The notes under the pieces: generated by a model
The model's database searches: none
What the model saw: the letters and a program-made list of their open reading frames with translations, nothing else
Told to the model about the DNA's origin: nothing
Source of the DNA: a virus
Virus genome (UHGV): UHGV-0342847
Reading direction: 5' to 3' (one strand)
DNA: 60,874 nt
Shown here: in pieces, positions 8,586 to 53,511 of the stretch
Layout: each line of letters begins with the position of its first letter
Numbering within the stretch: position 1 is the stretch's first letter
Position numbers and translations under genes: made by a program

Positions 8586-8938
8586 TTTGCTTCCTTAGCC
8601 GCCTTGCGACGGCGATCCATCAGTACGATAAAACGATATGCTGGGAATTTTGGTGCGCCGTATTCCTGCACCACTTCACGCAGGTGCGCTTTCAGATCAC
8701 CAAAAGCGAATGTCTTCGGTGTGTCTTCGACGCCAGGCCAGTCTGTTTCTTCCAGCAACCAATCACGGGCAGCTTCACAATGCCCGCAAACCTTAAAGCT
8801 CTGACCGCGACCATCCCACACGCCGGATGTGTATTCGTAGACATCCAGCGGTTCGATGATCCCGTGGCACTCGCAGCATTTGTGCTCTTTGCGTGCCACG
8901 CGGTGCGTAACCGTCGAGCATGATGCAAATTCAGTCAT
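8582..8938 (-). CDS. hypothetical zinc-ribbon-like protein
   Basis: HKCCECHG...VCGHCEA cysteine pairs. Confidence 0.4.
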   Translation of the reverse strand: MTEFASCSTVTHRVARKEHKCCECHGIIEPLDVYEYTSGVWDGRGQSFKVCGHCEAARDWLLEETDWPGVEDTPKTFAFGDLKAHLREVVQEYGAPKFPAYRFIVLMDRRRKAAKEAK

Positions 8939-10208
8939 GACTGGCCTCCGCTATTGCTTTCATGATGCGATCGCCTATCCAGCGCATTACCGGTACTGCC
9001 ATGCTGTTTCCGATGGCTTTGTATCGGTGTCCGTTGGCCACTGGCTTACCCAGATATTCAATCAACGTGTGGCCATCAGGAAAACCCTGCAGGCGCTCGC
9101 ACTCTATTGGTGTCAGACGGCGAACGGAAAGCGGGTAAGTCACGGCCAGATCTGTAGCATCCTTGTAATCACGCGCCTTGCATGTCGATGCGGTTTCATC
9201 GTCTGCATATTCACCAAACGCGGTCATTCTGAATGCTCGCTGTTGGGAATAAGCCACAGCGCCTTCAAAACCACCGCCTTTCTCCCTTGCCTTTAAGGTC
9301 CCGAACAGTTCGTGTGCGGCGTTCTGTTCTTCGTCAAGACCAATACAAACCAAACCGCTGCCACGCTGGCTGAATAGCTCCTGATTGCTCTGGCCTATTC
9401 CTCCGATGTTGTGTGATTGGTTAAGGGTTGGGTGTGCGTTTGCTGGATTATCCCAGTAGCTACCGACTTTAACGCTACTTCCAGTAGTGGCGGAAGTGAC
9501 TTCCCGCGCTTCTCTGCACGGCGCAGTATCCCTTCGCACGCCTTCTGACTCAAAAAGAACTCTTGCGGGATTGAAGTCTCTTCTAGCACTTGCGACAACA
9601 AACACACGGCGGCGTCGTTGGGCCACTCCGAAATATTGGGCATCAAGTACCCGCCACGCGATTGTTCTTTTGCCTCGAAGCACACAACCAGCGTTTGCCC
9701 AGCGATTCCCTGGTGGCTGTAACTCACAGTCTTCGCCGGCAAGCAGTCCAAGGAAGGCTCCGAAAGCGTTATCTTTGCTGCTGAGCACTCCAGGTACGTT
9801 TTCCCAGACGATAATAGTTGGTGGAAGTCCTGCTGCTGCTCGGCGGTAGTCGATGGCATCCGCTAATTCTCCGTATGAAATTGTGAGTTGACCGCGTGGG
9901 TCGGAAAGGCCAGCGCGAGCGCCAGCAACAGAAAATGCCTGGCACGGCGTGCCGCCAACCAGAATGTCGGGGGCTTCCATTTCTCCTGCGCGCATTTTGG
10001 CTGCGAGTTTGGTCATGTCGCCCAGGTTCGGCACTTCCGGCCAGTGATGAGCGAGAACGGCAGACGGGAAGTCCGGGCCATTCTGGTATTTGTGTTCGGG
10101 ATCGAACTGGGAGAACCACGCAGGGCTAAAGCCAAGCACTTCCCACGCTACGCTTGCTGCTTCGATACCGCTGCACACAGAGCCGTAGCTGATAGTGTTT
10201 GTATTCAT
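8931..10208 (-). CDS. DNA (cytosine-5)-methyltransferase
   Basis: Motif I SVCSGIEAAS, motif IV GTPCQAFS, motif VI VWENVPGVL and motif VIII QRRRRVFVV. Confidence 0.85.
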   Translation of the reverse strand: MNTNTISYGSVCSGIEAASVAWEVLGFSPAWFSQFDPEHKYQNGPDFPSAVLAHHWPEVPNLGDMTKLAAKMRAGEMEAPDILVGGTPCQAFSVAGARAGLSDPRGQLTISYGELADAIDYRRAAAGLPPTIIVWENVPGVLSSKDNAFGAFLGLLAGEDCELQPPGNRWANAGCVLRGKRTIAWRVLDAQYFGVAQRRRRVFVVASARRDFNPARVLFESEGVRRDTAPCREAREVTSATTGSSVKVGSYWDNPANAHPTLNQSHNIGGIGQSNQELFSQRGSGLVCIGLDEEQNAAHELFGTLKAREKGGGFEGAVAYSQQRAFRMTAFGEYADDETASTCKARDYKDATDLAVTYPLSVRRLTPIECERLQGFPDGHTLIEYLGKPVANGHRYKAIGNSMAVPVMRWIGDRIMKAIAEASHD

Positions 10209-10564
10209 TTTGGCTCCTGTGTTTCTGAAATCGCAACACGCACGGCAACGTCGTTCAGCAGCTTTGTAAGGTGCTTAGTTAGGTTGTCGCAGTCGTGCAG
10301 TCTGCTGAATTTCGTCAGACTACCGCCAAGCGCGATAACAGCGTCAGCCGGGCTGTCCAGTTGGAAGGATTTACTGTAATCCTCGTACCACTGTTCGGCC
10401 TTGTAATCGTAATATTTCCCCATCAGATACCAGGAACCGAGGCGGAACTGCATTTCGTAGCTGAAGCCGTTGCCAATCTCACATTCCACGTCATCAACCG
10501 TGAACCAGTCGAGTGAATAGCGGAAGCGCTTAATCTTTACGGTTTTCGCGACCTGCTCTTTCAT
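10205..10564 (-). CDS. hypothetical protein between the two methyltransferase genes
   Basis: 119 aa, no motif recognised. Confidence 0.4.
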   Translation of the reverse strand: MKEQVAKTVKIKRFRYSLDWFTVDDVECEIGNGFSYEMQFRLGSWYLMGKYYDYKAEQWYEDYSKSFQLDSPADAVIALGGSLTKFSRLHDCDNLTKHLTKLLNDVAVRVAISETQEPK

Positions 10565-11697
10565 GCTCCCCCCTTCTTGTTGTCGTTGTCAGCTTTCTTG
10601 TGTGAGAAGGCGATGCGCGCCGATGCGATGGTGGCAAAGTCCGGGTTAAGGTCGATGCCGATGAAGCTAAAACCTTCCTCGATGGCTGCGCGGCCTGTGC
10701 TGCCACTTCCCATCCACGGATCCAGAACCGTACCGCCTGGCTGGGTGATGAGGCGGCAAAGGTATTTCATCAGTGCGATCGGCTTCACAGTCGGGTGATT
10801 GTTTTTCGCGCCGTTAGTGCGACCGGCACCAGCTCGAGGATCGTTCAGGCCTGCGCTACCCTCTTTGCGCCCGCCAGTCATTTCCGATGCGCTGGTGGGC
10901 ATGAACCGCTACAGACCTTCGTCACGCTCTTTCGGCTTGACCTTTGCGCAGTAGAAGAACCGCGCCGCGCTGCCTTTGTCGCCGTGATGCTTGGTACCGA
11001 CACGCTTGCGCAGGCCCAGAACCTGACCAGTTGACGCAGATGACGGTTCATCCCCTGTTACAGGCGCAGCGGCGCCGGCATTTTTAGGGAAGCAGGCGAT
11101 CACTTCATCGCTGCCGTCGTGAATTAGGTTAGCAGGCCATCGTCCATCAGGTGACTGCTCATAATCGCCTGTTGGCTGCGTTCCGTCGCGCTGGTGAGAT
11201 AGAAGTCCACCAGCGCCACCATTGAGCTTTTCGTCTGTTGGGATGCGGCAGGCTGCGATATTCAGTGCGCCTGTGCCGTGCTCTGCCATGTTTTCGGCAA
11301 CGGTTTTCTTGAAAGGCTTACGGGCCATTACGATCGGCTCGTGTGCTGGTTTCAGCGCCGTTCCCCATCCTTCCCAATCACCATCGAGGTTGTGAGACTT
11401 CGGGAATCCACTGCCATAAACCCAGAGGATTTGATCACGGATTTCAAAGCCAGCATCTTCGGCGTTGACAACCAGACGGTGATAGGTTCGGGAACCACCA
11501 AATGCCAGCAGATACCCGCCAGGCTTCAGCACGCGCAGACATTCCTGCCATTGCTCAATTGTCGGGACGTCGTAATCCCATTTTTGGTTCTGGAAGTTCA
11601 GTCCGTACGGTGGATCCGTGACAATGGCGTCAACGGAGTTATCCGGCAGCGTTTTGAGTACGTCTTCGCAGCGCCCTACATGCAATTGATAGCTCAC
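10561..11697 (-). pseudogene. beta-class N6-adenine/N4-cytosine DNA methyltransferase interrupted by a single in-frame TAG (10909-10911)
   Basis: The N-terminal part 10909-11697 carries motif IV IVTDPPYG. The C-terminal part 10561-10902 carries motif I VLDPWMGSGSTG and HPTVKP. Both parts are in the same frame, separated by ...EGL-TAG-RF-MPTS... Confidence 0.7.
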
Positions 11698-12017
11698 TGG
11701 GCATCCTCCGCAACATACAGCAGGGATGCGTCCAGCAGTTCTTCCAGCGGGAAAGCTTGCAGGCTACGGACAACGTGCTGCATGTGCTGCACGTATCGTT
11801 TTGCGCCGTGGGTGTTGATGACGTCCAGAACGGGAATAGGCTTGTTGCGCTGTGCGTACTGCTCCAGCAACCAGGCGTGAATGATACGGGCCTGCTCACT
11901 GATGCCAGCCGCACTACCGGCGACAGGAACAACGCTCTTCATGTGAGGAATGACTTTAACGCCGCCCTTCGCTCGTGGGGGTGACGGTTTAAAGGTGGAT
12001 AACTCAATTCCTTTCAT
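11694..12017 (-). CDS. hypothetical protein
   Basis: Start re-chosen at MKGIEL. The stop overlaps the methyltransferase start. Confidence 0.4.
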   Translation of the reverse strand: MKGIELSTFKPSPPRAKGGVKVIPHMKSVVPVAGSAAGISEQARIIHAWLLEQYAQRNKPIPVLDVINTHGAKRYVQHMQHVVRSLQAFPLEELLDASLLYVAEDAQ

Positions 12018-12212
12018 ACTGTACCTGCAATAAAAAACCGCTCTGGCTTCAGTGGTGACACTCCGCACGCGCAAAACGCGATTGGACACTGAAATCAAAG
12101 CGGTTAGGTCATTATCTTAGCTTAACAGCTTCAGGGTGTCACGCCTGATATGGCCGGTAAGCTATCGAATCGGTGTTACGATCCTGCTCTATCTGTTGCC
12201 AGTTTGACAACA

Positions 12213-13296: not shown

Positions 13297-13476
13297 TTAG
13301 CCCTTACCGATAACCGCGTTAATTTGATTGAGAACGATATCTGTCATCAGGCCTTTCCCGTTTACAGCGACGTGGGCCAGAATTTCACTGCGAGCGGCTT
13401 TGAGTGCTCCGACGCTCACCATCACCATTCTCTGATTCTCTTTATTTGCAGCTTTCAAGCGCTCTAAAGGTGTCAT
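13297..13476 (-). CDS. hypothetical small protein (59 aa)
   Basis: Open frame with ATG, below the track cutoff, in operon context. Confidence 0.3.
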   Translation of the reverse strand: MTPLERLKAANKENQRMVMVSVGALKAARSEILAHVAVNGKGLMTDIVLNQINAVIGKG

Positions 13477-13479
13477 GGG

Positions 13480-13698
13480 TTAGTCCTCCCTGTACGGATT
13501 TAATTTGTTGTGCAGTTTGTTAAATGGCCCCCATACGATGGAGCTATACCACTCAGCTATTTTTTCTGCCTGCTCTCCTGCTAGCCAGATGAGGACTATC
13601 GGTAATATTGGAATCATTAAAATAAGAAAGAGAAGGAAAAATAGAGCCTCTTTAACCCGGCTTTGGCGCGGGTAATTCTTCCGGAATATTTTTGTCAT
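13480..13698 (-). CDS. small single-pass membrane protein in an AT-rich patch (moron-like)
   Basis: ALFFLLFLILMIPILPIVLIWLAG TM helix. Local GC is clearly below its surroundings. Confidence 0.45.
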   Translation of the reverse strand: MTKIFRKNYPRQSRVKEALFFLLFLILMIPILPIVLIWLAGEQAEKIAEWYSSIVWGPFNKLHNKLNPYRED

Positions 13699-13699
13699 C

Positions 13700-14203
13700 T
13701 CACTCCCCCTTCACGCCAATGCCAGCGGCGGCAAGCACTTTGCTAACAAGAACCTTATAAGCATTCTGAGCACGTACAGCGTCAACGGAGCGCCATTTCT
13801 CCACATCTGGAAGTGTTACAGTGCGCGCTTCCATTTCCTCTGGTGCTACAGTCGCTGGTGCGTCGTCCCATTCACGAATAACTGCTGCAAGTTTCTCGGC
13901 GTCAGATGCGGAGATATCGCCATCAATAAACATCACTGGCTTACACTTATTCGCCTCCAGTTCTGCCATGCGACGACGGCGGTCAGCAATAACGCCTTCG
14001 TAATACTCACGTTGTTCTGCTACGCGCTTCTCTGTGGCTTCCAACTCATCCAGCAGCGCCAGCACAACCTCTGGGGTTATAGCATCATTGAATTCGTCGC
14101 GGTCATAACCCCAACTATCGGATGCTGCTCTCTCCGCCATTTCACGCAACGCCTGTTTGTTGAGTGCTGTCATTGTCATCATTTCGACCTCGTTACCAGG
14201 CAT
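13700..14203 (-). CDS. Ead/Ea22-like family protein
   Basis: Acidic coiled-coil protein with ALLDELEATEKRVAEQREYYE typical of lambdoid Ea22/Ead proteins. Confidence 0.5.
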   Translation of the reverse strand: MPGNEVEMMTMTALNKQALREMAERAASDSWGYDRDEFNDAITPEVVLALLDELEATEKRVAEQREYYEGVIADRRRRMAELEANKCKPVMFIDGDISASDAEKLAAVIREWDDAPATVAPEEMEARTVTLPDVEKWRSVDAVRAQNAYKVLVSKVLAAAGIGVKGE

Positions 14204-29287: not shown

Positions 29288-32200
29288 CTAGTCGTAAATT
29301 CTGGGTGCTTGTTCCTCCAGAATTCGTTCGCGCAGCTTCCGATTGTAGCGCATTCCACCCGTCGCGCTCTCAGCATTTTGCGCACGCGTTTTCATGGAAC
29401 TCTTGATGCTCTTGCCTGTGATGGCCTGCTCTGGGTATTTCTCGTTGAACTTAGTGATTTCATCAACGATCTTATCTTTCGCAGTGTCATCGCCTTTCTT
29501 ATCGGCTTTCCAGTACCCATCCATGAGTTTAGAACGCTGGCGCAATATCGTTTGCTGCAGGTTGTAGCCAGCATTGTTGATATCGTACTGCTCTGCCAGT
29601 TTCGCCGGGGTGGAGCCAAGAGCCTGCCGGATAACGTCGCCGTAGCCAACATCATCAACGATCGTGTCGCCTTTCAGGTTCGTTGCACCTTCTGTGGCGT
29701 AACGGTAAGCCTTCATCGGATCCTTAACCGCTTTCGGCATCATCGTTTCAATGCCGCGGTAGGTTTCTCCCTGTTTCATGAGGTTGAAGCCACGGAAGAT
29801 ATTGCTGGCGATCGACGGCGTAGCCCCCAGCAGCTGAGACTGCCAGTATTCAAACTCGCTTTTCCCTTCCAGCTCTGTAGATGGGGAACGGAACCAGAGA
29901 TCGCGCATCCCCAAGGATTCAGACTGGCTGGTGCCGGTCACGTAACCCGGCACGCCATCGAGGATAATACCGGTCATCATCGGGCCAAGCGCTTCGACCA
30001 TGTTCTTTTTCAGCTCCTGCTCTGGGTCTTTGTCATCATCCATGAACATAGAGGCCAGGGCAAACACGATACCAGCTCCCCACGTTCCAGCCAGGCCAGC
30101 GCCAAGCATCATCATTCCTGTGATACCGGCCAACTGGATCCGCGCCTCTCTCTTCGCTGCCGGGCTATCTCCTTTCACCGACTGGTGAATATCGCGGAAC
30201 AGACGATACAGCATGTTGATCGAGTAGTTACGGAAGACCAGTGCCACCTTCATCATATCGTTGTGCATGACACGAGGACGGCTGTTGTTCTGGTAGTCGA
30301 AATGGGTTTTCCACGTCAGATCGTTAGCTGCTTCAATCGCTTTCTGGTGGCTAAGGCCTTTGGCGCGCGCCATACGGTACGCCATCAGCACAGTGACCTC
30401 GCGGTTGATGCGCTCTGTATGGTGGAATGCCCACGACGCAGCAGCCATCAGGCGAGTTTTCAGCGGGCTGTAGTCAATGCCAGTTTCGCCAATGCTCGCC
30501 AGGTCATGCGCCTGCGTACGGTCAATGATGCCGATATCATAAGCAGCCTGAATCGCCTTCTTCTCGTCGGCGGTCAGGTTTTTGCTTTCACCGATAGAGC
30601 CTTTACCACGCACCAAATCGGAAGATGCGCGGGCAAACTGATTAATTGCCCGGGTAAACCCTTTCGCCGTTCCGTCGTACGCAGCCATCACCGGAATACC
30701 AATCATCGGCGTCTGGGCAAGGTTTCTAATTGCCGTGATAGGTGACGCAGCCATGAACCAGAGGAATGCCGCGCTGGTGAGCTTAGTCGCAATCGATCCA
30801 CCTGTCGGGTTCATGATGTACTGGTGTCGTTTCTCCATTTCGTTGACAACCAGACCGTCGCGAACAGGATCCTTCGTCTTGCCAGCCTCTTCGCGGGCAG
30901 CGTCCAGAGCCTCTTCCATATCGAAGGTGTACTTCAGGCGCGCCAGTTGGTGTGCGCTATGGAACATCTGATTACCAAATGCCCGCAGCGCGTCAGCGTT
31001 GTACCCCTTGCGGCCAGTACGGTGGATACGGTTTTTACGGATGGAGAAATCCGGCAGGCTTTCCAGATAGCGCTGCCACACCTCATCCTTCACGGTTTCG
31101 GCGTTTGGCAGGTCAGCCAGAATGTCTTCGACGTCGGCCACAAAGTTAGCGTCTACTGCTTTGCGGGTCGTCATACTGTCGTCCAGCGCGCCAACCTGCA
31201 CCGTATATTTCGGGTTTTCGCGCATCAGCTGAGCAAATTCACGCTGTTCACGGGCAGATTCAAAGCGGCTGAATGACTCGACCTTTCCGGATTCCTTATC
31301 GCGCACGGTGACAAACAGGTTTCCGAAGCGAGCCAGCGGGAAGTATGGCCCCTGCAAGCGGTTCATTTCGAACTGCGTACGCAGTTGGGTGATACGTGCC
31401 TTACGGTTCCATGCTGTCTTCGTCTTGGCGATTTTCAGCTTTTTATCTGCTTCGGCCTGGGCATCTGCTTTCTCCTGCCCGGTCAGACCTTCATCAACGA
31501 TACGCTGCAGATCGGCGCGGTGCTCACGCTCAGCGCGTTTGATGCGCACGTTAATGGCCTTCTCCATGTTGCCCAGTAGGGTTTTCTCGTACTCGTTGGT
31601 GATTTCCGTATAGGCGTCACGAACTTCCTTGAAGATTTCCTGGCCTTCTCCGGACAGCTTCTTATAACGGGCGTTCAGATCACCCCATGCTGAATACCGG
31701 AGATCATCCTGTGCCGCTTTCGCCACCAGCTCCAGTTCTTGCTCGCTGCCAGCGGCAACGGTACGCAGAGCATCACGATCCCGGTCAGTCATCATCGGTT
31801 CAAACGATTCAGACGGGTCTACCTGGGAAATGGTGGCGTCGTGCATCAGATCCATCAGCTCGACGTTTTCAACCGGATGCAGTACGCGGTACTTCAGCCA
31901 TTTCTGCGCCGTTCCGTCAGTCTTCGAATGCCATTTGTTACGCATGGCGTCCATTGACTGCTTCAGAGACATGTATTTAACCAATGACAGGATGTTTTTT
32001 CCCAACTCCGTTACCAGCGGGCGAAGCGGCAACAGCCCCAGACCATGCTTCATTGAGTCAGTAATCTTGTCAGCAGGCAGGTTTTTGAGGCGATCCCACC
32101 AGGTGCGTACCTTCGCGTTGTCCTGCGCTTCGGTTGGGATGTTAGGGTCCGGCTCCATGCCAGAGCGCAGGGATTGCAGGTCTGGAGACTGATAGTCACC

Positions 32201-35200
32201 AAACTGATTAACCAGACCATACATATCATCGCCGGTGCGGTTGATAATCTGGTTGTTCACAAACTTGCCGTCACCGGCCAGAACGGAATCCAGAGCCTCC
32301 ATTACCGCGCTCGGGTCGTCGCCTTTGGCACCCAGGATAGAGCGGATTTTCGCGATGATCTGCTTCATCACTTCAACAGCGCGATCCACCCATGTTTTCG
32401 GTGCATCACCGCGGGCCTTACGCTCTGCGATGATACGCGCGCCGTTCTCCGCCCAGTATTCAGACGGGGAAGCGTACTGGTAATCGCCTGGCGGCAACTC
32501 TCCAGTAGCAAATGCCTGTCGAGCACGCTCCAACCCCTCTTTATCGCCGTACATACCAGCAACCAGATCCGCTAACAGGTGCTCGCGACGGGTATCCCCG
32601 GCGTCTGCATATTCCTGCATGCGAGCTTCAAGTGCCTGCGTCCACTCTTTTGCAATGGCTTCCTGCACGTTCCGCGGCAGCATGCGCTCCATGTGGTGCA
32701 TGATTTCGTGCGTTGCGGTATTGGCATCGGTCGTTCTTACCGGCGCACCATTACGGGCAAAATCGCTGAAGAGAGTAATCAAACGGTTAGGAACGTTGTA
32801 GTTACCGGCTGGCAGTGAATCCCCTCCGCGGGCCAGCTCGATGTTCAGTGAGTTAGCGATGTGCGGATACTGACGAACCAGCCACTGAGCCAACTGCGCC
32901 CCTTCTTTGCTGTATACCCCGCTAATTTCAGCAGCACGCAGGGTAGCAAGAACTTTCTCCTGGTTTGTGGTAGCTGTGCGGTTCTGGAATTCGATACGGG
33001 ATACCAATTCAGCAAATTTATCAGCCGGGATAGCTTGGCTTTCTTGCCCGCGCATACGGGTAAGAGCTGCAATATCGTCAGCAGATGCCTGGCGCTGGTC
33101 GTTCGTGAATGCCGGAAGTTGTTCTCCCTGCGGCTCACGGTACATCGTTTCGCTGATCTCGTAGTCCTTGTTGCGCCCTTTGTTGTCCACAAAGCCAAAG
33201 CGCTTATAGAACTCATTGAGACGCGACTTGTTACCGCCAAAGTCACTGGACGGTGACAGCGCTACAGTTTTTCCGTTGGCATCGGCCCAGTTGGTAATCT
33301 GCTGCATGATAGCCGTACCGGTTCCAAGATTTCTGGAATCAGATGGCAGTTCGATGCGTTGCAGTGTCACAACATTACCGGTTCCCGTGAGGCTGAGTTT
33401 CAACCCGGGATACTGTGCTTTCAGCTGGTCTGCAAACTCTCGTGTGGTTTGCTCACGACGGAAAGACGGCAGGTCGCTCATCTGCTGCTGGCGACCTTCA
33501 CGATCGCTAACAGACAGGTCTTCAATCTGGTCAAACAGATCGTTGATGCTGTTGGCATTGCTCAGGTCTTCCTGCTGGGTCTGCGGTGCCTGATAGTCCT
33601 CGCTGGTGTTCTTCTCCAGTACTAGGACGCGGGTATTAACCTGTGTACCGGCGCGTTCAAACGTGGATCGCGGCATCCAGATATCTGCTACCAGATGAAT
33701 ACCGTTCTCTTCGTTGTCGCGCATAAACTGGTTAAAACGCTGGTCAGCCAGACCACCGCGCGGCACCAGCGCCACGATGCGACCGCCTTCACGAAGGTGC
33801 TGCACTGCTTTCGATACGTGATCGTAGGCAGTTTTCCCACCCATGCCGTAAGGCGGGTTCATAACGATAGCGTCGTACTTGTTGGTGCGGTTCAGGTCTT
33901 CAAAGCGACTGTTAACGATACGTGCCACGCCATTCACCAGCGCAGCGCGCTGTGACAGGTTCAGGGAAGGTTCAACCATCGTCACGTCAGTCTGTGCAGG
34001 GAAGAAGCGAGCGATCGCGCCGTGACCAGCTGACGGCTCCAGCACTTTGTCGCCTGGCTTAATGCCAGCCCATTCTACCATCTTCATGCCCACCGGTTCC
34101 GGCGTGGCGTAATAGTCCACCCCTTCGCGGTTATCCCTGCTCTTACTGTTCTTCTGCTGGGCGTAGTAGTAGGACTTCGCCTTGTCGAACTCAGAGATCG
34201 TATTGCTGTCCCGCTGGTCTGCTGCCTTGCCGCCTTTCCCGTCAGACTTACTCGCAGTAATAGGTGCTGCATCCTGATAGGAATTGATGAAAGACTGCTT
34301 CAGAGCACGGGAATCCGGCCCCATGGCGAGGTTTTCAGCGGTAGATGCACGCTCTGCAAGTTTCGATGCGAACGCGCTGGCTTCCCACGCTGTGCCGGTT
34401 GTCATGTATCGGAAAATAGCGTCAGAAGCCTGGCCGGTGCGATAGATGCGCCCCTCAAGCTGGATCGCCTTCGTCGGCTGCGTCGGCAGGCCAAGGTTAA
34501 TCTCTACGCGCTGGTGCTTGCCGCTGGTGTCGTGAACGCTGACACCCTCACGCATAGCGTCAGACTGGGCAATCAGGATGTTCGGCCCTGTCAGATCGTC
34601 GTTGAACTTATCCGCATTCGCTCGGCGCTTAGACTTCGGCACCGTACCGTTAAAGGTCATCGCATTCGGGAACGCCGCCAGCAGGGTATTCAGTGCAGAG
34701 TCAAGCCCGCTGAAGTTAATGCGGAACAGTGGCCTTTGGAACAATTCACGGGCAACCTGGCGCAAAGCCGGATCCATATCCTTCAGAGATTCAGCAAACG
34801 GATTGAAGCCGCCGCCCTGGTTGTAGTCGTGAACTACCAGAACCTTACGGCCTAACGCGAGGTGTTGCTTAATGATCGGGATAGCGGCTCGGGCCTTCAT
34901 CGACTCCAGAAGGAACATTTTGCGCTGGTGGTCGAAGGTATCCATTACCGCACTGTAGATATTGCGGTACATGCCATTCTCGCCGCTGTTCAGGTACTCC
35001 AGAGCCTGATCAAGCTTCTTGCCCGCGGCATCGTCAATCAGGACGAATTTGCGGTCGTAGTCGAATGGAACATCGAGGGAACGGCCAATCAGAGCACCGG
35101 TATCTTTCAAATACTGGTTGAAGTTCTGCTCCATCAGCTCGGTGTTAACCTCAGCATCAGGGCGAGTCAGCCGGTTGTACCGCATGCGGTAGCCGAAATT

Positions 35201-38200
35201 CTGAATATAGAACATATCTCGCGGGTTGCCGCTGTTGTACCCGCCGCCGCTGCGGTCTTTGAAACGATCCGCTGGTGGCGTGTGGTGGAACAGGTAGCCT
35301 TCTGCGTAATCGGTATTCATGACGTACGCGAAAGGAGTGGCAGACATGAAGACGGTTTTCGGCAGGTTCTCCTGCTTCTCCCAGCGCGCATTCCATTTCG
35401 CACGCTCGCTTTTATACAGATCATTCCACTGCGCCAGCAGACGGTCATAACGCGCTGAACGCTTCTCGGCGGCATCGGTTTTGTTGTTTTCTGTAGCATC
35501 CTTGTCGCGGGCATGCTGTGCGGCCACCAGCTCAGCATACTGATCGCCATACTTCGCCTGCAGCCATGAAGAAAAGCCATCCGGATGACCAGTTAGCGCC
35601 CGGAACATGCGCAACTGCTCGGTAACGTCGCCGCTTTCGTTCTGCATCAGGCGGTGAGACTCATCAGGGATAACCAGGTCCCACTCACGCTGGGCCAGGA
35701 AATTATTCTGCCCAAGGTTTGCGTAGGTGGTGATCACAGGACCGCTGCCGCCATTGTCAGTGATACCGCTCAGCTGCTTCAGTGGCATATCCAGCCAGCC
35801 AGCTGATTTAACCCAGTCAGAGGCGATCTTGTCGGACGGGACAAGAATCAGGATGTTTTCGCGACCTGCGTTATGGAAGCGCTTAGCCACGCCAAGGCCT
35901 GACATGGTTTTACCCGTTCCGGTACCGTTGGTAATGACGATCCCGTTGTCTTTTTGGTGGCGCTGTTCCACTTTGACAACATCATCCTGCTGCGCAGACA
36001 GTAGCATAGGCAGAGAGGCGCGTACGCTATCAGCATCACCCCACTTAGTTTCTTTCGGCGCTTTCTTCTGCGCTGCTAAACGTTGAGCGAACTCCCCGGC
36101 TCCAGCGGCGTGAGCATTTGCAGTAACTGCTGCTGCTCGGCTTCGCTCAGTTGATAGTCCTGCTTCGCTACGCCCAGCGCTTCCGGTGCGGATATCACTT
36201 CCGGACACGCCTTGCGAAGGTCGGAATTGCCCGTCTTCTCGATGTACGCGCTGATCGCCTGGTTCTCCGCGAGTAGCGGCCCCATCGTCTGATACGCGTT
36301 GATCACGCTGTCCGGTGTCCCGTTCTTCGTTAACGCGTCGGCCTGCTGTTGCAGGGCGCTGTCCATCTGTTCCTGATCCATTGCCATCAGCGCTTTCATT
36401 GACGGGTTTTGCATTTCCGGCTGCTGCGCTATCTGGTTCCAGACCTGTGCGGGGAGTTGATACATTAGGCACCTCGTTATCGAACTGTGACACCATATCA
36501 TCCATTGCGCCGATTGCCCGGGATGGTTGACGGGTGCTTGATTTTTGCGCTTCATCCTGCTGTGCGGCTGGCGCGTTTGGTTGATCGTTGCTTGCTGCTG
36601 GCTGCTCATTCAGTTTCGCCAGCTCGCTGCGCACGGTTTCCGCGGTATCCATCCCCTCGATACTGACACCGCTATCCTCCATCATATCGCGGGCACCGTT
36701 ATACCAGCTGCGCAGGTACGGACGAACACGGTTAAGCGGCAGGTCGAGATCGTTCGCCATCGCTTTCGCGAAATCGGCAAATTTACGGACACCGGCCTCA
36801 ATGTGGAACACGGCCAACTCGGTACCGATCGCCAGAATCTCCGGGTCAATACCGCTATTCAGCTGGGAGAATTTAGCCTTCAGGCGCTGGCGCAGCTCTG
36901 CCGCACGATCCTGAGATACCAGTTTGTTGTTGGCTCCGTACTCCGCTGATTTGGCTGCTTCCTGCGGCTGCTCAGTCACCTGGCTGGCATCGTAACCCTT
37001 TTTCCACGCATCAAACTCGGCCTTACCCTCTTGGGTGGATCTAGATGGAATACCCAGCGTTGCACGCACGCTAGTAATGAAACCTGTGCGTTCTTCCTTG
37101 CCGACAAATTTCAAACGGTCAGATAGCTCGCTTTCAACCTGCGCTACCGTCTTACCGTCAGCAAACAGCCTTTCAATGTCCAAAGTCAAACCCGCTTTAT
37201 CCGCACGATCACGATCTTGCTGTGCGTTCTGGTTTACCCAGCTCTGCTCATCTTTCCCAACGGTGACGCGAGGCGTCTCTCTGGTTTCAGGAATATTTTC
37301 AGGAATATTTTGTTGTTCGTTTTGTCGTGCTGATGCTGAGCGATTTTTTGCAGTCGGGCCTTCAGGATCGCCAAACAACAAGCTATTAACGGTATCCTGG
37401 TCTGATTGAGACATTCGGTTAGGGTCAATGGCTTTCAGTAGGGTAGCATTCCAGTCATTCCCAGTTTCCTGAGCCTCTTTTACTGCTTCCTCATACATCC
37501 AGTTGTTCAGACGCTTCGTGCTGTTGCTTAGTTTCTGAGGGCCAGTAGTGTCAATCTTAGGTGCGGGTGATAATTTACGCCCACTCATACTGTAAAGCTG
37601 TTCACCGGACTCGACCACTCCATCACGCGGCGGCTTACGTTCGTTTCGTTGTTCTTGCTGAGGAGATGTTTTGGTTTCCGCAACAGTCTCTGCAGTAGAT
37701 TGAGCAACTGGCTCAGTCTTATTCCACGTCACATTACGGGAACGGCCAGATTCCATTTCGGCAACAGAAAGCGTGGTGCTGCTTCCGGTTTCCTGGTTGG
37801 TGAGGTGGATCGTTCCGTTTTTATCGATGCCGTTGATCTTGTACTTGCCACCAGCCTTCGCATAGCCGACATCACCAGACGGTGACACGATATTTCCCTC
37901 TGCACCGACAACCTTACGGGCGCGGTTAACGCGTGGGCTTTCCTTCTTCCCTTTCGGCAGTTTAGGTGCTTCTGCTTTGGCACCCTCATTCGTGAGGGTA
38001 CCAGACGTTTCCGCCAGCGCTGGTTGTTCAACCTTGTGGATCTCGAAACGATTAGGCTTCACCTGTACCGCGTCGTAACCATCCAGCTTGCGGCGATCGA
38101 TAAAGGCCTTTGCCTTCTCCTGGGTAGAGAACCATTTCGGCTTGCCGTCACCGCCGATCAGTGCAGGGCTGGCGTCGGCGGTTGCAGTGTCACCAGAAAC

Positions 38201-41200
38201 AGTAGCTCGTCCACCGGCAGCAGGCTGGTCGGCAACACCCGCGTCATTTCGTTCACCGGATCCAGCAACTCGGCTTTCATCTGGTTGTACTGCAGTTGTG
38301 ATATCAGGATCTGCCTGCGCAGGAGTTTCAGCGCCTGCAGGCTGCTCATTTCTCTGTTCCTGTTGAATTGCCGCATTCTGTGAACCTCTCTGTTTAAGGC
38401 CAGCAATAGCGTTTTTATCAATAACAGCGTATTCGGTGCGCCCACGCGGGTCAGTGCCCACGACAACGCCGTAACCTTTCGATAGCAGATCGTTGATAGT
38501 GTTCTCTGACAGGCGGGTGATATCACCTTCCTTACGGAAAACCTTTGTTCCAGGCTTGATATTGACGTCGTAAACCGTTGGCGTTCCGCCCATCATCCCG
38601 GCGTAACCTTCAGCCTGTGCCGCGTCCTCCGCCCGGGTGCCGTAGAAACCACCATAAACGCGACCTTTCTTGCCTTGCTTCTGGCCTTCAGGACGGATGA
38701 TCTGGATATCATCGGCAGTGAGGTTAGGGTTTCCGGATCCATGAACGATGGTCATGCCTTCGTTGCCTACGGTTTCCCCGTCACTTTCACTATTCCCTCG
38801 GTTCAGGAACTCTGCTGATTTGTCGTTGAGCCTTTTTGACTCTGCCGTCTCTTCGGCTGTGCGGTTGCTCTTGTTCAGCAATTCTTTCAGGCGCAGGGAT
38901 TCCGTTTTGGTCAGGCCAAAATCATCGACTGCGTTACCGCTTTCCCGGTCTTTTACTTTGGCGTTAAGCGCTTTTTCCACCTGGCGGCGTGCATCCATCA
39001 GACGCTTATCCATCCCGCCGTTCTGTTTTGCCTGCTGCGCAATATAACGCATCCGGCCGCGCAGCTCGTCTTCACTCAGATCGGTAAGTGGGCGCTCCTG
39101 CGGCACGTCGATTTCGCGCACAGCTGGCTTGCCATCGATGATTTCACCAGTAGCAGGGTCAACGGTCATGCCGTCATCGGTAGCCTGCTGCTGGATTTCC
39201 GGCTGCGCTGCAGGCTGTTCTTCCTGCACTGGTGCGGCGGCTTGCTCAGTCTGAGGCAGGTTAATGTCGATATCATCAGGAGTGACGGTGTACGGCGTGC
39301 CGGTTCCGTCGCGAACGGTAACACTGCCGTCATTCTCGTAACGGTCAATGGTGACGTCCATCGCGGTAGACGGGTCGCCTTTTGCCTGAATGTTGATGGC
39401 GTTTCCAGGTTCTCCCGCCCAGAGATTGCCGTTTGCCGCTGTTGGTTGATCAGCCGTTCCACGCACTGCTCGCTCAAGCGGTCCAGCATCATCCGACAGG
39501 CCACTATCGTCACGCGGAGGTGTTGGTGCAGCATCCGTGGCCGCATCCTGCATCTGTGCTTCCGGATCTGTAGGCGCAACTTGTACAGGAGTGGTTTCTG
39601 CTGGCGTAGCATCCTGTTGCTGGCTAACGCGAGGGGCAGCAAGCCCCATTCCTGCCCCCATCATCCCACCAAGAGCAGCGCCGCCAGCTACCTGGTTAGC
39701 TACGCCCTTCATCAGAGGCGTGCTCGGGTCAGCTTCCTGCATGGCATAGTTCTGCCCCATCTGCTGGAATGCGCTTTGCGGGGCTTCTTCAAACAGGCCT
39801 TCACCTATAGCGCCGGTAAGGGCAGACTTCAGGCGACCACCAGCATTCCCAGTGATGATTTTCGCCATAGCGCGATCGCCCATGCCGCCGAAAATACCGG
39901 TACCGACACCGGCCAGCAGGAAAGCTTTCGACGCGGCGTTTTCTGCCAACTCTGAACGGGCTTGTTCAAACGTCTTGCCGCCGTCCATAAGAGATTTAAG
40001 CGCCTGGCTGTCTTTCAACTGGTCAGGCGTCATCTGGTTGATCTGCTCACGCGTTTCGCGGGCAGACTGCGCACCACCTAAACCACCTTCCAGAATGCCA
40101 CCAGCAACGGTAGCAGTACGGGCAGCAGCCTTTGCTGCCACCTCACGTGAAGCACCACTCGCAATAGCTCTTTTATAGGCCATAGACGCAAGGCGACCAG
40201 ATCCGCCCATCGTTACCGCCATTTCTGGCAGTGATTCAAGGATTCCGGACATATACGCACGAGGATCCGACCACGCCGGGCCGAAACTGTAGCCAGTGGC
40301 TTTCTTGCCGCCGCCGATATCATCACCAGGCTCGACCACCCACGCCTTTTTGCGGGCAGCGGCAAGCTCAGGCGAGTAGGATTTCTCAGTGGATTTGTCC
40401 CACTCTTTGAAAATTTCCTCAGAGCTTTTCCCATTTGCCCAGCGGTCAAAGCGATCGGCAGCATTGACGATTGGCTTACCGATCAGCGGTACACGGCTTA
40501 CCAGCTCCTTTGTATCCTTTGCGGCAATGTTCACACCGGATTGTAGGAGGTTCATCACGTCAGCGCCCATTTCCAGCGCGTCGTCCATGATCCCCTGTTG
40601 TTTGGCGGTCTGCGCCTGCTGCTTCTGCTCTTCCTGTGCCATATGCTCAGGAATGGATACGGGCTGAGTAATAGCCTTCACATCCTGCTGTAACTGGTTA
40701 GCCTTGCCGATTACGTCACTTTCCTGCTGCTGTACCTGTGCCATTTCAGAGGCGGTCAGCGGTCGGTAACGACCAGGCTCTTCGGCGTTAAGTTGATCGA
40801 GAACGTTTTGTGTTTCGATAGCACGAGCACGGAGATCGTTCTGCTCCATGTTCTCCATAGCACTCTGCGCTGCCGGGTATTCAGCTGCAAAATCACGCTG
40901 CGTCTGTGCTGGCTGCTTGATCTGCCCCTGCGTACCATCAAAGAAGGTCTGCGCCTTGTTAAGGACGTCAACACCGTACTGGCGGGTTTTTGGCCCCCAC
41001 TGTTTGCGGTCATCACCGCCGAAATGCGCGGATATCGCTTCCTGAATGGAATAGCCTTTATCGAGGCGCTGCTTCAGCTGCTTAGCTGCGGCGTCAATCG
41101 CCTGGCGTGGATCGTACGGGTTAATGCCCATCCCGGCAGCGGTAGAGTCGAGATACTGCATCAGGCCTTTGGCTCTGCCCCATTTGGTACGTTGCCCCAG

Positions 41201-50984: not shown

Positions 50985-51008
50985 AACCCCGCCGAAGCGG
51001 GGTTTTTT
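50985..51008 (-). terminator. bidirectional intrinsic terminator between the two tailspike genes
   Basis: AACCCCGC-cgaa-GCGGGGTT with T-runs on both strands. Confidence 0.45.
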
Positions 51009-51009
51009 A

Positions 51010-53511
51010 TCAATAACCTGCTGTTGTATTTAGAGCATTTATTACAAAGTTAAGATTACCTAACCTAACATCATCCTTATCAAAATACACATAAGAACCT
51101 ACTTCCTCTGCTATGCGTATAGGGTATATCTTGCCATTCTCATATGTGATATCAGTTTGGTTACCAGCACTACTGGCTAGCATAGTCCTACTCGTAATGT
51201 TGCCTACAGTATTATCAATACCTAAACTATCCGGTAACGATATACCAAAGTATGCGTCAGTGATGTTTTTATCAGTACAAGTAATTTTGGCAGTCACCCT
51301 AATATTATCAATACCTTCTTTCCTAAACTCGATATTACCAGTGAAACCTCCTCCAGCAATTAGTGAAGAAGCCGGGTAAGTGAATCTATTAGTCAGATAT
51401 GTAACATTACCCCCTAACACGTGGTTCTGCCATTTACGTACAGCAGATTGGTAGATTACAGCAGGAGTACCCAAGGCAGAATCATTATTAACCATTAAGT
51501 TACTAATAGTATTCTGCGTACCAATAGCATTATACAGCTTAACCTTACCGGGTTTAGTTTGCCCATGAACCAGGATGAAGCACTTATCAATAGTAGAATT
51601 GTAACCATTAAAGACTATATTCACCCCATCATTACCTGATTGTGCTACATCATAACCTTCAGTATCAACGCTATCTAAATAGCAGTGCGTGACGTGGGTA
51701 TTACTATCGAGACTAAGCGCAGTGAGTAGCTGTCTGTTTTGATATTCATTTCCTGACGTTGCAGGGAATCCCCACGGATGGCAAAAATCAATGTGGTTAG
51801 TTCCTGATGATCTGATACCGCGAGCATAGCCGACACAAACAAGCGAGCCGTTTATTCCGTCAGCAGCAGATAAGTCTATTCCCCATTTTGACTTATCTGT
51901 CCAACTAGTAATCCAACAGGTTACGGTTTTAATGGTGATCTCATACCCTTTTGGGCCTGTCTTAACGCCACCAAGCCTGCACCCATATGTGTAAACATTT
52001 TCAACGATAACTTTGGGTGTTGTTATCAATAGGCCCATAACGTCACGGTCAACAATTAAACCTTCCCCGATAACAGGACTAGTAGACAAGATTAGCGTAC
52101 CAATACGAGTTGTTTTCTCGTTAACAATTCCGTGGTCATCAACAGACCACATCAGGCCGTTCTCAAGCCCTGACGGGTCTTCGCAAAATATAATACCATT
52201 GCGGCAGTCTACTGAGCTGTTTGGGGGCTGCTTAACAGTCTTTGTTATTCTCACCTTTCCAGTAATATCCAGTGTCAGTCCATGAGCTGCCGAATATGCC
52301 AACGCCTCAATTAACCCGTCATCTGCAGGTAAAACGCCGGTAGTATCCACAAACCGCGATACTGGAAGACGTGAATTTAGCTCACTAAAAACAGTTCCGC
52401 CGAGGTGACTTACGAGGCTAGAACCTTCTGGCTGCAATAATGCTGATTTTAAATCTCCATCCTTTACATCTGCCCAACCACCAACTCCTAACCCTCCAGT
52501 TGAGGCAGGAGTTGAATCCGGTGGGACTGACTTAGGTAGCGGACCGCTCCACACAAAATAAGGGCCAGATCCTGATGGAGCAGCTTCCCAAAGCAACGCA
52601 TCCTTCACGGTTTTTATTTCCGAGCTACCTTTCTCGAATGATTTATGTTTGTTGTAATACCCTGGCTCAGTCACGGACAGGATTGATTCGCGTGAGTTGT
52701 AGTCAGAAACTAAGTCATATTGCACGGCATAGAGAACATCACCAGCAACAGCTGAATGAATAACAATGCTTCCGTTTTTGAGAAGCTCCCATTTTGGCGA
52801 CAGAAAAGACCCGGACCGCAAGATGCGTGGGTAGAATCCTGCACCAGAGAAATCAACAGCATCACCTGAGAGATCGGTAGCAGAGAGTGTGTTATCGCCA
52901 TCAGACAGGGTAACTGTAGCTATTTTGGCCTGGGAGGCGTATGCAATTCGACGAACAGCAACTTTAACCGTGGTGCTGTCTGGTTTACTGAGAGCTTCAG
53001 TCCCATCTGCAATAAGCGTCGTGTCACCTACATCAATAAGCGGCGCAACTTCCAGAGCAATCTCTGCAGGATCGCCCTTGAGTGAATCAACCCATTCAGC
53101 CTCGGTCATTGGCGGGTTATCTGTTGTCGTATCCAGATACGATTGATAAGCACTCTTACCAACTGGTCCAACAGGCCCGGTCGGTACAATAATCTGTGTA
53201 ACAGGCGTACTGCCACTGGTGTCTACCGTGATAATGCACTCACCAATTGATGCGCCAAGAATGGCATTCGTTGGTGGCAACATTTCAACGTAGAAAGAAC
53301 GGTCTTCTGCGCCTACTGCGCGCCCATAAACCAGAATATCGACGGTCTTTGCTGTTTCTCCAGGAGCGAAAACAACAGTACCCTTGTTAGCAGCATAATC
53401 GACGGAGGCCTTCGCCGTTCCGTCCGATGTGTGCCATTCAACCTGAACAGGCTCAGTAACAGCTGTGCTCAGGGTGATCGTGAATCTTGCGAGTGCAGAA
53501 CCGGTATTCAT
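51010..53511 (-). CDS. tailspike/receptor-binding depolymerase 1 (beta-helix) with N-terminal Calx-beta/Ig-like anchor
   Basis: TITLSTAVTEPVQVEWHTSDGTAKASVDYAANKGTVVFAPGETAKTVDILVY at the N-terminus. A long Asn/Gly/Thr-rich repetitive beta-helix-like C-terminal region is encoded by low-GC DNA. Confidence 0.6.
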   Translation of the reverse strand: MNTGSALARFTITLSTAVTEPVQVEWHTSDGTAKASVDYAANKGTVVFAPGETAKTVDILVYGRAVGAEDRSFYVEMLPPTNAILGASIGECIITVDTSGSTPVTQIIVPTGPVGPVGKSAYQSYLDTTTDNPPMTEAEWVDSLKGDPAEIALEVAPLIDVGDTTLIADGTEALSKPDSTTVKVAVRRIAYASQAKIATVTLSDGDNTLSATDLSGDAVDFSGAGFYPRILRSGSFLSPKWELLKNGSIVIHSAVAGDVLYAVQYDLVSDYNSRESILSVTEPGYYNKHKSFEKGSSEIKTVKDALLWEAAPSGSGPYFVWSGPLPKSVPPDSTPASTGGLGVGGWADVKDGDLKSALLQPEGSSLVSHLGGTVFSELNSRLPVSRFVDTTGVLPADDGLIEALAYSAAHGLTLDITGKVRITKTVKQPPNSSVDCRNGIIFCEDPSGLENGLMWSVDDHGIVNEKTTRIGTLILSTSPVIGEGLIVDRDVMGLLITTPKVIVENVYTYGCRLGGVKTGPKGYEITIKTVTCWITSWTDKSKWGIDLSAADGINGSLVCVGYARGIRSSGTNHIDFCHPWGFPATSGNEYQNRQLLTALSLDSNTHVTHCYLDSVDTEGYDVAQSGNDGVNIVFNGYNSTIDKCFILVHGQTKPGKVKLYNAIGTQNTISNLMVNNDSALGTPAVIYQSAVRKWQNHVLGGNVTYLTNRFTYPASSLIAGGGFTGNIEFRKEGIDNIRVTAKITCTDKNITDAYFGISLPDSLGIDNTVGNITSRTMLASSAGNQTDITYENGKIYPIRIAEEVGSYVYFDKDDVRLGNLNFVINALNTTAGY

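Follow-up and report, generated by a model that had tools for sequence, protein, structure and literature searches.

A lone in-frame amber codon divides a beta-class DNA methyltransferase gene in a podophage-like genome and is probably a very recent nonsense allele

Orphan beta-class DNA methyltransferases (PF01555) are carried by prophages of Enterobacteriaceae and by Lastavirus phages; in the Klebsiella phages LASTA and SJM3, such a gene is annotated 'DNA methyltransferase HindIII' (P0060; PMC10052179). The gene described here lies in the virus genome UHGV-0342847, whose whole analysed stretch of 60,874 nucleotides is called the window below. Over its full length it is 66-93% identical to the prophage and Lastavirus enzymes, with which it shares the motif order DPPY ... 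HPTVKP ... DPWMGSGSTG, the conserved loop MTGGRKEGSAGLNDPRAGAGRT and a place in the early operon beside a C5 methyltransferase. Unlike these genes, which are uninterrupted, the window copy has a TAG codon instead of Glu 263. The solved beta-class enzymes CcrM (6pbd), M.RsrI (1eg2), DpnA (5hek), M.MboIIA (1g60) and M.PvuII (1boo) can also be aligned with it in the DPPY and AdoMet-binding regions (E 1e-8 to 8e-18), but only the core is common to both, whereas the middle 170 residues and a Gly/Arg-rich loop of the window's family have no counterpart in these structures.

Division of one methyltransferase fold over two polypeptides has been described for C5 enzymes, either as natural two-subunit proteins (M.AquI and M.EcoHK31I) or as split ones (M.HhaI, M.BspRI and M.SssI; PMC3404938, PMC3439449, PMC2836561). 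The window gene resembles them in that one fold would be distributed over two polypeptides, with the division at or near a variable region, and in that both pieces could in principle come from one transcript. On the other hand, the two-piece state of the C5 enzymes is conserved or engineered and has been shown to be active, whereas the window gene encodes an amino-methyltransferase whose two-piece state is unique to this sequence.

On the minus strand, positions 11697 to 10561 form a single reading frame of 378 codons, a count that takes in the internal TAG and leaves out the final TGA. The sole internal stop is the TAG at 10909-10911 ('cta' on the plus strand), found in the context FFYCAKVKPKERDEGL*RFMPTSASEM, the sequence that flanks it being FFYCAKVKPKERDEGL*RFMPTSASEMTGG (* marks the stop). 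The elements of the gene are as follows:

10561..11697, minus strand: whole gene of a beta-class N6A/N4C DNA methyltransferase (PF01555), 93% identical to the intact 392-aa protein P0001
10909..11697, minus strand: N-fragment ORF, 262 aa and TAG, with a GTG start, motif IV DPPY and the variable middle region
10909..10911, minus strand: premature amber codon TAG, replacing GAG (Glu 263), the codon of the relatives
10900..10902, minus strand: ATG (Met), a possible restart codon and codon 1 of the C-fragment ORF, 6 nt after the TAG
10561..10902, minus strand: C-fragment ORF, 113 aa, with an ATG start, HPTVKP and the AdoMet-binding motif DPWMGSGSTG

The GTG start of the N-fragment is preceded by GGAGG, 8 nt upstream, and the same start is used in the closest DNA relative, L001. 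In the joined sequence, DPPY occupies residues 28-31 while HPTVKP and DPWMGSGSTG occupy residues about 301-335; DPPY is N-terminal to the AdoMet motif I, which is the permuted order of the beta class. The C-fragment itself contains HPTVKP and VLDPWMGSGSTG. When compared with the PF01555 profile (N6_N4_Mtase), the N-half matches positions 1-111 (E 2e-13, 51.2 bits), the C-half positions 156-219 (E 8e-19, 68.9 bits) and the joined sequence positions 1-219 of 221 in one stretch (E 1.5e-33, 117.1 bits); the joined sequence and each half alone pass the gathering cut-off of 26.7 bits. This pattern of matches indicates, far beyond chance, that the N- and C-ORFs are complementary halves of one PF01555 domain. 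An earlier note on this DNA had described a beta-class methyltransferase split by a lone in-frame TAG, with the DPPY half and the motif I half kept in the same frame and parted by this codon alone, and the translation, the two profile halves and the motif order all bear out that description. The TAG thus deprives the window copy of an uninterrupted frame across both halves. The gene falls outside the CcrM and YhdJ-type equivalogs, given that intact P0001, scored as a stand-in for the whole protein, reached 81 bits where the cut-off is 830 and 75 bits where it is 292 (NCBIfam NF050803, NF008572).

We searched the joined sequence against 5.8 billion proteins, and the more than 120 relatives listed, 66-93% identical, come from Enterobacter, Klebsiella, Salmonella, Citrobacter, Serratia and other prophages and from Klebsiella phage LASTA. 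The listed homologues are single proteins of about 375 aa, uninterrupted in 120 cases out of 120. Their lengths range from 350 to 470 aa apart from three, given as 328, 340 and 433 aa; the 328-aa protein, P0097, is encoded on a 1.3-kb contig and is cut at the contig end. A stop at codon 263 occurs in none of the more than 120 listed relatives, the 34 close loci or the 119 aligned proteins. Instead, the residue at this position is Glu in 113 of the 119 protein homologues and Asp in the other 6, and the codon in the 34 close loci is GAG (31 loci), GAA (2) or GAT (1). Thus, the comparison of homologues proposed in the earlier note does reveal a sense codon at the TAG site. In L001, which is 91% identical at the nucleotide level, the site reads CTG GAG CGC TTT CTC, as against CTG TAG CGG TTC ATG in the window, and the TAG is a single G>T step on the coding strand away from GAG.

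The same note had asked whether the two halves are normally separate genes. L191 and L192, a syntenic phage-like contig, speak against it: their methyltransferase gene (protein P0002, 378 aa, 87% identical to the joined translation) is intact with exactly 378 codons, and after it come a 120-aa ORF and a C5 methyltransferase, which is the window's arrangement, unbroken. Since this syntenic gene is continuous, and the homologues are single proteins, the halves are not normally separate genes.

The TAG allele itself was sought in several collections. Megablast of the locus gave no match in phage records or in 5,426 E. coli genomes; a more distant blastn search matched four E. coli genomes, all annotated as intact and too few to give a pseudogene frequency. 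Look-ups of the exact product of each half, begun with either V or M, found no record. When viral and metagenome contigs were scanned with degenerate DNA patterns for a stop at this or the next codon, the TAG allele was not found among the matches listed; a tblastn screen showed these to be chance sequence unrelated to the gene, apart from L068, which is one and the same contig as L025 (see below). The exact TAG allele therefore appears to be new to the collections searched, while the gene belongs to a known and widely annotated family.

The divergence of the gene from its relatives helps to date the lesion. Pairwise dN/dS values against five relatives are 0.02-0.13 in both halves. On the window branch, defined by sites at which L001 and L191 agree with each other but not with the window, there are 40 synonymous changes as against 3 missense and 1 nonsense; downstream of the stop, the count is 9 synonymous and 0 missense. 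The gene has no frameshifts and has kept every family-invariant residue. These dN/dS values, the branch counts, the intact frame and the retained invariant residues indicate purifying selection over essentially the whole period that separates the gene from its nearest sampled relative. Such an absence of decay would mean either that the stop is very recent or that the gene still functions, and the data fit both equally.

The position of the break relative to the fold was examined next to the available structures. The C-fragment aligns to the C-terminal regions of CcrM, M.RsrI and DpnA in the PDB. In an AlphaFold2 model of intact P0001 (mean pLDDT 53.6), residues about 1-130 and 306-375, which form the Rossmann-type core, are confident, whereas residues 131-305, including the break at 263, lie below 50, and the model is too poor around the break to tell a true loop. 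Each fragment is thus predicted to hold part of the catalytic fold, and since the Rossmann core needs residues from both, neither should be active alone. The C-fragment corresponds, from its residue about 4 onwards, to a module that is 55-70% identical across very diverse larger proteins, and in distant homologues the segment right after the break site is deleted or variable. Because the C-terminal module is separately conserved and the adjacent segment is variable or deleted, the break falls at a module boundary. In the representative-library search with the C-fragment, stand-alone ORFs and contig-end cuts look alike, as with P0159, which lies at a contig end. The Gly/Arg-rich loop SASEMTGGRKEGSAGLNDPRAGAGRTNGAKNNHPT, at positions 10820-10900 of the window (residues 4-40 of the C-fragment), hardly varies among close homologues, and many PF01555 proteins that are much larger (400-800 aa) and more diverse have it too, with 55-70% identity (P0130-P0279).

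Collectively, these data make it probable that the TAG is a real and very recent loss-of-function nonsense allele (GAG, Glu, to TAG) of an orphan beta-class methyltransferase gene, in other words a pseudogene in the making. This is the recent nonsense mutation that the earlier note listed among its readings, and it is supported by homologues that are single proteins with GAG at the site and by a window branch free of decay. According to this scenario, one G>T change on the coding strand would have turned GAG into TAG in a gene that is otherwise intact, and in a non-suppressing host translation would end after residue 262. The resulting N-fragment would retain DPPY and the variable middle region but lack the AdoMet-binding half of the Rossmann fold, whereas a C-fragment restarted at the ATG would have the AdoMet-binding motif without the catalytic motif. 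Since each fragment misses half of the catalytic fold, little or no methylation would be expected from this enzyme; the C5 methyltransferase nearby stays intact. The nearby restart ATG may help to keep the coupled downstream genes expressed. Such an allele could be neutral; it could even be of benefit in hosts that restrict methylated DNA or are devoid of the cognate restriction enzyme. Loss also fits the general pattern, as the prophage or phage methyltransferase of this family is often lost. Some hints count against a null allele, namely the ATG 6 nt past the stop and the breaks within three codons of it in two other family members, L025 and L193, which hint that there may be a reason why breaks are tolerated here.

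The main consequence is for annotation: the 262-aa and 113-aa ORFs are best treated as a single disrupted methyltransferase gene (pseudogene or nonsense allele) and not as two genes, and the phage DNA should not be assumed to carry the methylation of the split enzyme. Moreover, loss of a phage methyltransferase alters which restriction systems the phage evades, which bears on host range in experimental use.

An alternative is that translation stops at the TAG and restarts at the ATG, and that the 262-aa and 113-aa fragments associate non-covalently into an enzyme that is active, perhaps less so. We consider this unlikely, although the layout of the locus offers it several footholds. With an ATG only 6 nt downstream, termination followed by restart is plausible. 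The break is located inside residues 217-305, where pLDDT is below 50, and at the upstream edge of the separately conserved C-terminal module, next to a segment that is deleted or variable in distant homologues. The C-half has also remained without missense changes on the window branch. Furthermore, the codon after the site is TGA in L025, followed by an ATG after 24 nt; in L193, three codons past the site, a 1-nt deletion creates an ATGA stop-start overlap; and fragment complementation is documented for C5 methyltransferases (PMC3404938). Nevertheless, the two-piece state is normal in none of the more than 120 listed homologues; natural two-subunit enzymes would be expected to have a two-gene arrangement conserved in their relatives, and here the relatives are single genes. 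The lone Shine-Dalgarno-like sequence available for the restart, GAAGG, is 13 nt from the ATG, a poor spacing. Other broken members of the family are disrupted at many other places, and L193 came from a query with the N-half, which is biased to late breaks. We know of no demonstration of fragment complementation for beta-class amino-methyltransferases.

We also considered whether the ATG that follows the stop might be a compensating novelty and rejected this, because Met occurs there in intact homologues too (3 of the 119). In the DNA loci examined, the codon at this position is ATA, ATT, ATC, CTC, TTG, GTT or ACT, and the Met in the window is an ordinary polymorphism. Were the fragments nonetheless to reassemble, the locus would provide a natural precedent for bisecting beta-class amino-methyltransferases before the AdoMet-binding module, of use in split-enzyme engineering.

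Several independently disrupted members of the window's family were found, with other lesions and in other lineages, none of them carrying the window's TAG. In L025 (= L068; L025:6790-6822), CGA has become TGA at the codon after the window's TAG site. In L193 (P0122; L193:3780-3816), the 1-nt deletion lies in a T-run, and the resulting 271-aa ORF ends in a TGA that overlaps the ATG of a 101-aa C-fragment ORF. P0125 has a frameshift near residue 236, P0123 is fused after about residue 240, its N-half being joined to a DksA/TraR zinc-finger ORF, P0127/P0283 are broken near 205-211, and P0288 has an internal deletion; C-terminal ORFs of 95-197 aa also occur among the broken members. The probability that a nonsense change placed at random lies no more than one codon from the window site is about 2/122, so the near-coincident breaks in L025, L193 and the window are mildly surprising. 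One could propose that codons 263-266 form a permissive split point, hit in three independent lineages that each keep two translatable ORFs, either because the fragments reassemble or because restart keeps the break from having polar effects on the downstream C5 methyltransferase and replication genes. We regard this proposal as quite doubtful; if true, it would reveal a natural split amino-methyltransferase, or show that the survival of nonsense alleles in a phage operon depends on their position. More generally, the orphan methyltransferase often decays, perhaps with a preference for survivable breaks near a restart codon. Chimeric relatives exist as well: P0124 is fused to a tyrosine integrase, and P0284 combines the C-half with the N-terminus of a different, DPPW-type methyltransferase. 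Together with P0123, these chimeras point to frequent recombination inside the methyltransferase gene.

A sequencing, consensus or assembly error, the true phage having GAG and an intact gene, was also raised in the earlier note and seems improbable to us. The TAG is indeed a single-base difference from a near-universal GAG, neither truncated product is on record in exact look-ups, and the allele is absent from the listed pattern-scan matches in viral and metagenome contigs. However, the assembly looks clean, with a chain of tightly packed overlapping genes and a very long ORF that show no other break:

29288-41431, minus strand: 4047-aa ORF (12.1 kb, 4047 codons) of the structural region, ending in TAG

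In addition, consensus assemblies seldom hold substitution errors, and real broken alleles are common in this methyltransferase family.

Conditional expression of a full-length enzyme, by amber suppression (a supE/supF-type host or a suppressor tRNA) or by programmed or leaky read-through of UAG-C giving a low, regulated dose, is very unlikely: it can draw on a stop that is in frame, so that any read-through would give back the full-length protein, on a 3' base (C) that makes UAG a comparatively weak termination context in E. coli, and on the catalytic nature of methyltransferases, of which a little might do, but the stop is present in no relative and is thus not a conserved recoding site, and natural hosts seldom carry amber suppressors. 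Low-level spontaneous read-through of UAG followed by C is possible on general grounds. A phage-encoded suppressor tRNA was rejected since ARAGORN found no tRNA or tmRNA gene in the window and Rfam no element at gathering thresholds. A read-through-stimulating RNA structure was likewise rejected, as the predicted fold of the 141 nt that surround the stop is no more stable than that of shuffled sequence (z -0.41). A programmed read-through site would be recognised by a conserved stop and by a stimulatory structure or suppressor tRNA, and the locus has neither. Genome-wide recoding of TAG was rejected too: in a crude set of 74 ORFs the terminators are TGA (39), TAA (30) and TAG (5, the N-fragment included), TAG being the normal stop of at least four other ORFs, among them the 4047-aa one, and the TAG at 10909-10911 is the only one in the window that splits a domain. 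None of these tests gives positive support to a conserved read-through device, a suppressor or a changed genetic code, and the earlier idea of a conditionally expressed methyltransferase serving as a regulatory device is not supported.

The nonsense allele is embedded in a minus-strand chain of translationally coupled early genes, whose members around the methyltransferase are:

11694..12098, minus strand: upstream 134-aa ORF of the same operon, whose stop overlaps the GTG start of the methyltransferase
10205..10564, minus strand: 119-aa ORF between both methyltransferase genes, with an ATGA overlap with each neighbour
8931..10208, minus strand: intact C5 cytosine DNA methyltransferase (Dcm-like), 425 aa, matching PF00145 positions 5-323 of 324 (E 4e-38)

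The overlap between the upstream ORF and the methyltransferase is GTGA, and those between the methyltransferase and the 119-aa ORF and between the latter and the C5 methyltransferase are both ATGA. Genes with an ASCH domain and of replication-initiator-like type are found further downstream in the chain. The C5 methyltransferase scores 119.6 bits against TIGR00675 dcm (cut-off 100.65). It had been described earlier as an intact Dcm-like enzyme sitting next to the split gene; it is intact, but the two genes do not adjoin, the 119-aa ORF lying in between. Family profile searches gave no match for the 134-aa ORF, and the 119-aa ORF has none in Pfam, PHROG or NCBIfam. An ORF of 120 aa occupies the equivalent place in L191 and L192 and is absent in L001. 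The end of the 119-aa ORF (...VAISETQEPK) equals the C-terminus of the intact methyltransferases P0001 and P0009, both of which are without this ORF. It looks like a small gene gained by insertion at the 3' end of the methyltransferase gene, or lost from there by deletion.

As judged from its matches, the window looks like the complete genome, of about 61 kb, of a podophage similar to Lastavirus, SopranoGao and Bcep22. Its portal, major capsid and large terminase genes have weak nucleotide matches to Klebsiella phage SopranoGao, Burkholderia Bcep22-like phages and Erwinia phage Stean, the early region matches Klebsiella phages ZX1, SopranoGao and LASTA/SJM3 (genomes of 61-62 kb), and the 4047-aa ORF is a feature common to the window and the Lastavirus/SopranoGao/Bcep22-like group.

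Two patches of the window are closely similar to other phages. Within an 833-aa tailspike-like ORF (51010..53511, minus strand), 1.4 kb at 50985-52400 shows 89-94% DNA identity to tailspikes of large Salmonella myophages (pertopsoe, LPST94 and Se-B), one segment being 94% identical to Salmonella Kuttervirus tailspikes; the remaining structural region has weak matches at most to any phage record. This stretch looks like a receptor-binding module that was exchanged horizontally between phages of unrelated types. The second patch, a short one at 13472-13972, matches P22-like phages of Salmonella and E. coli (ES18, HK225, epsilon34 and epsilon15) in their ead/Ea22-like and DUF551 region with 92-96% identity, a mosaic patch in an otherwise distant genome. 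Because of these identities with the Kuttervirus tailspikes and the P22-like early block, the host is probably Salmonella.
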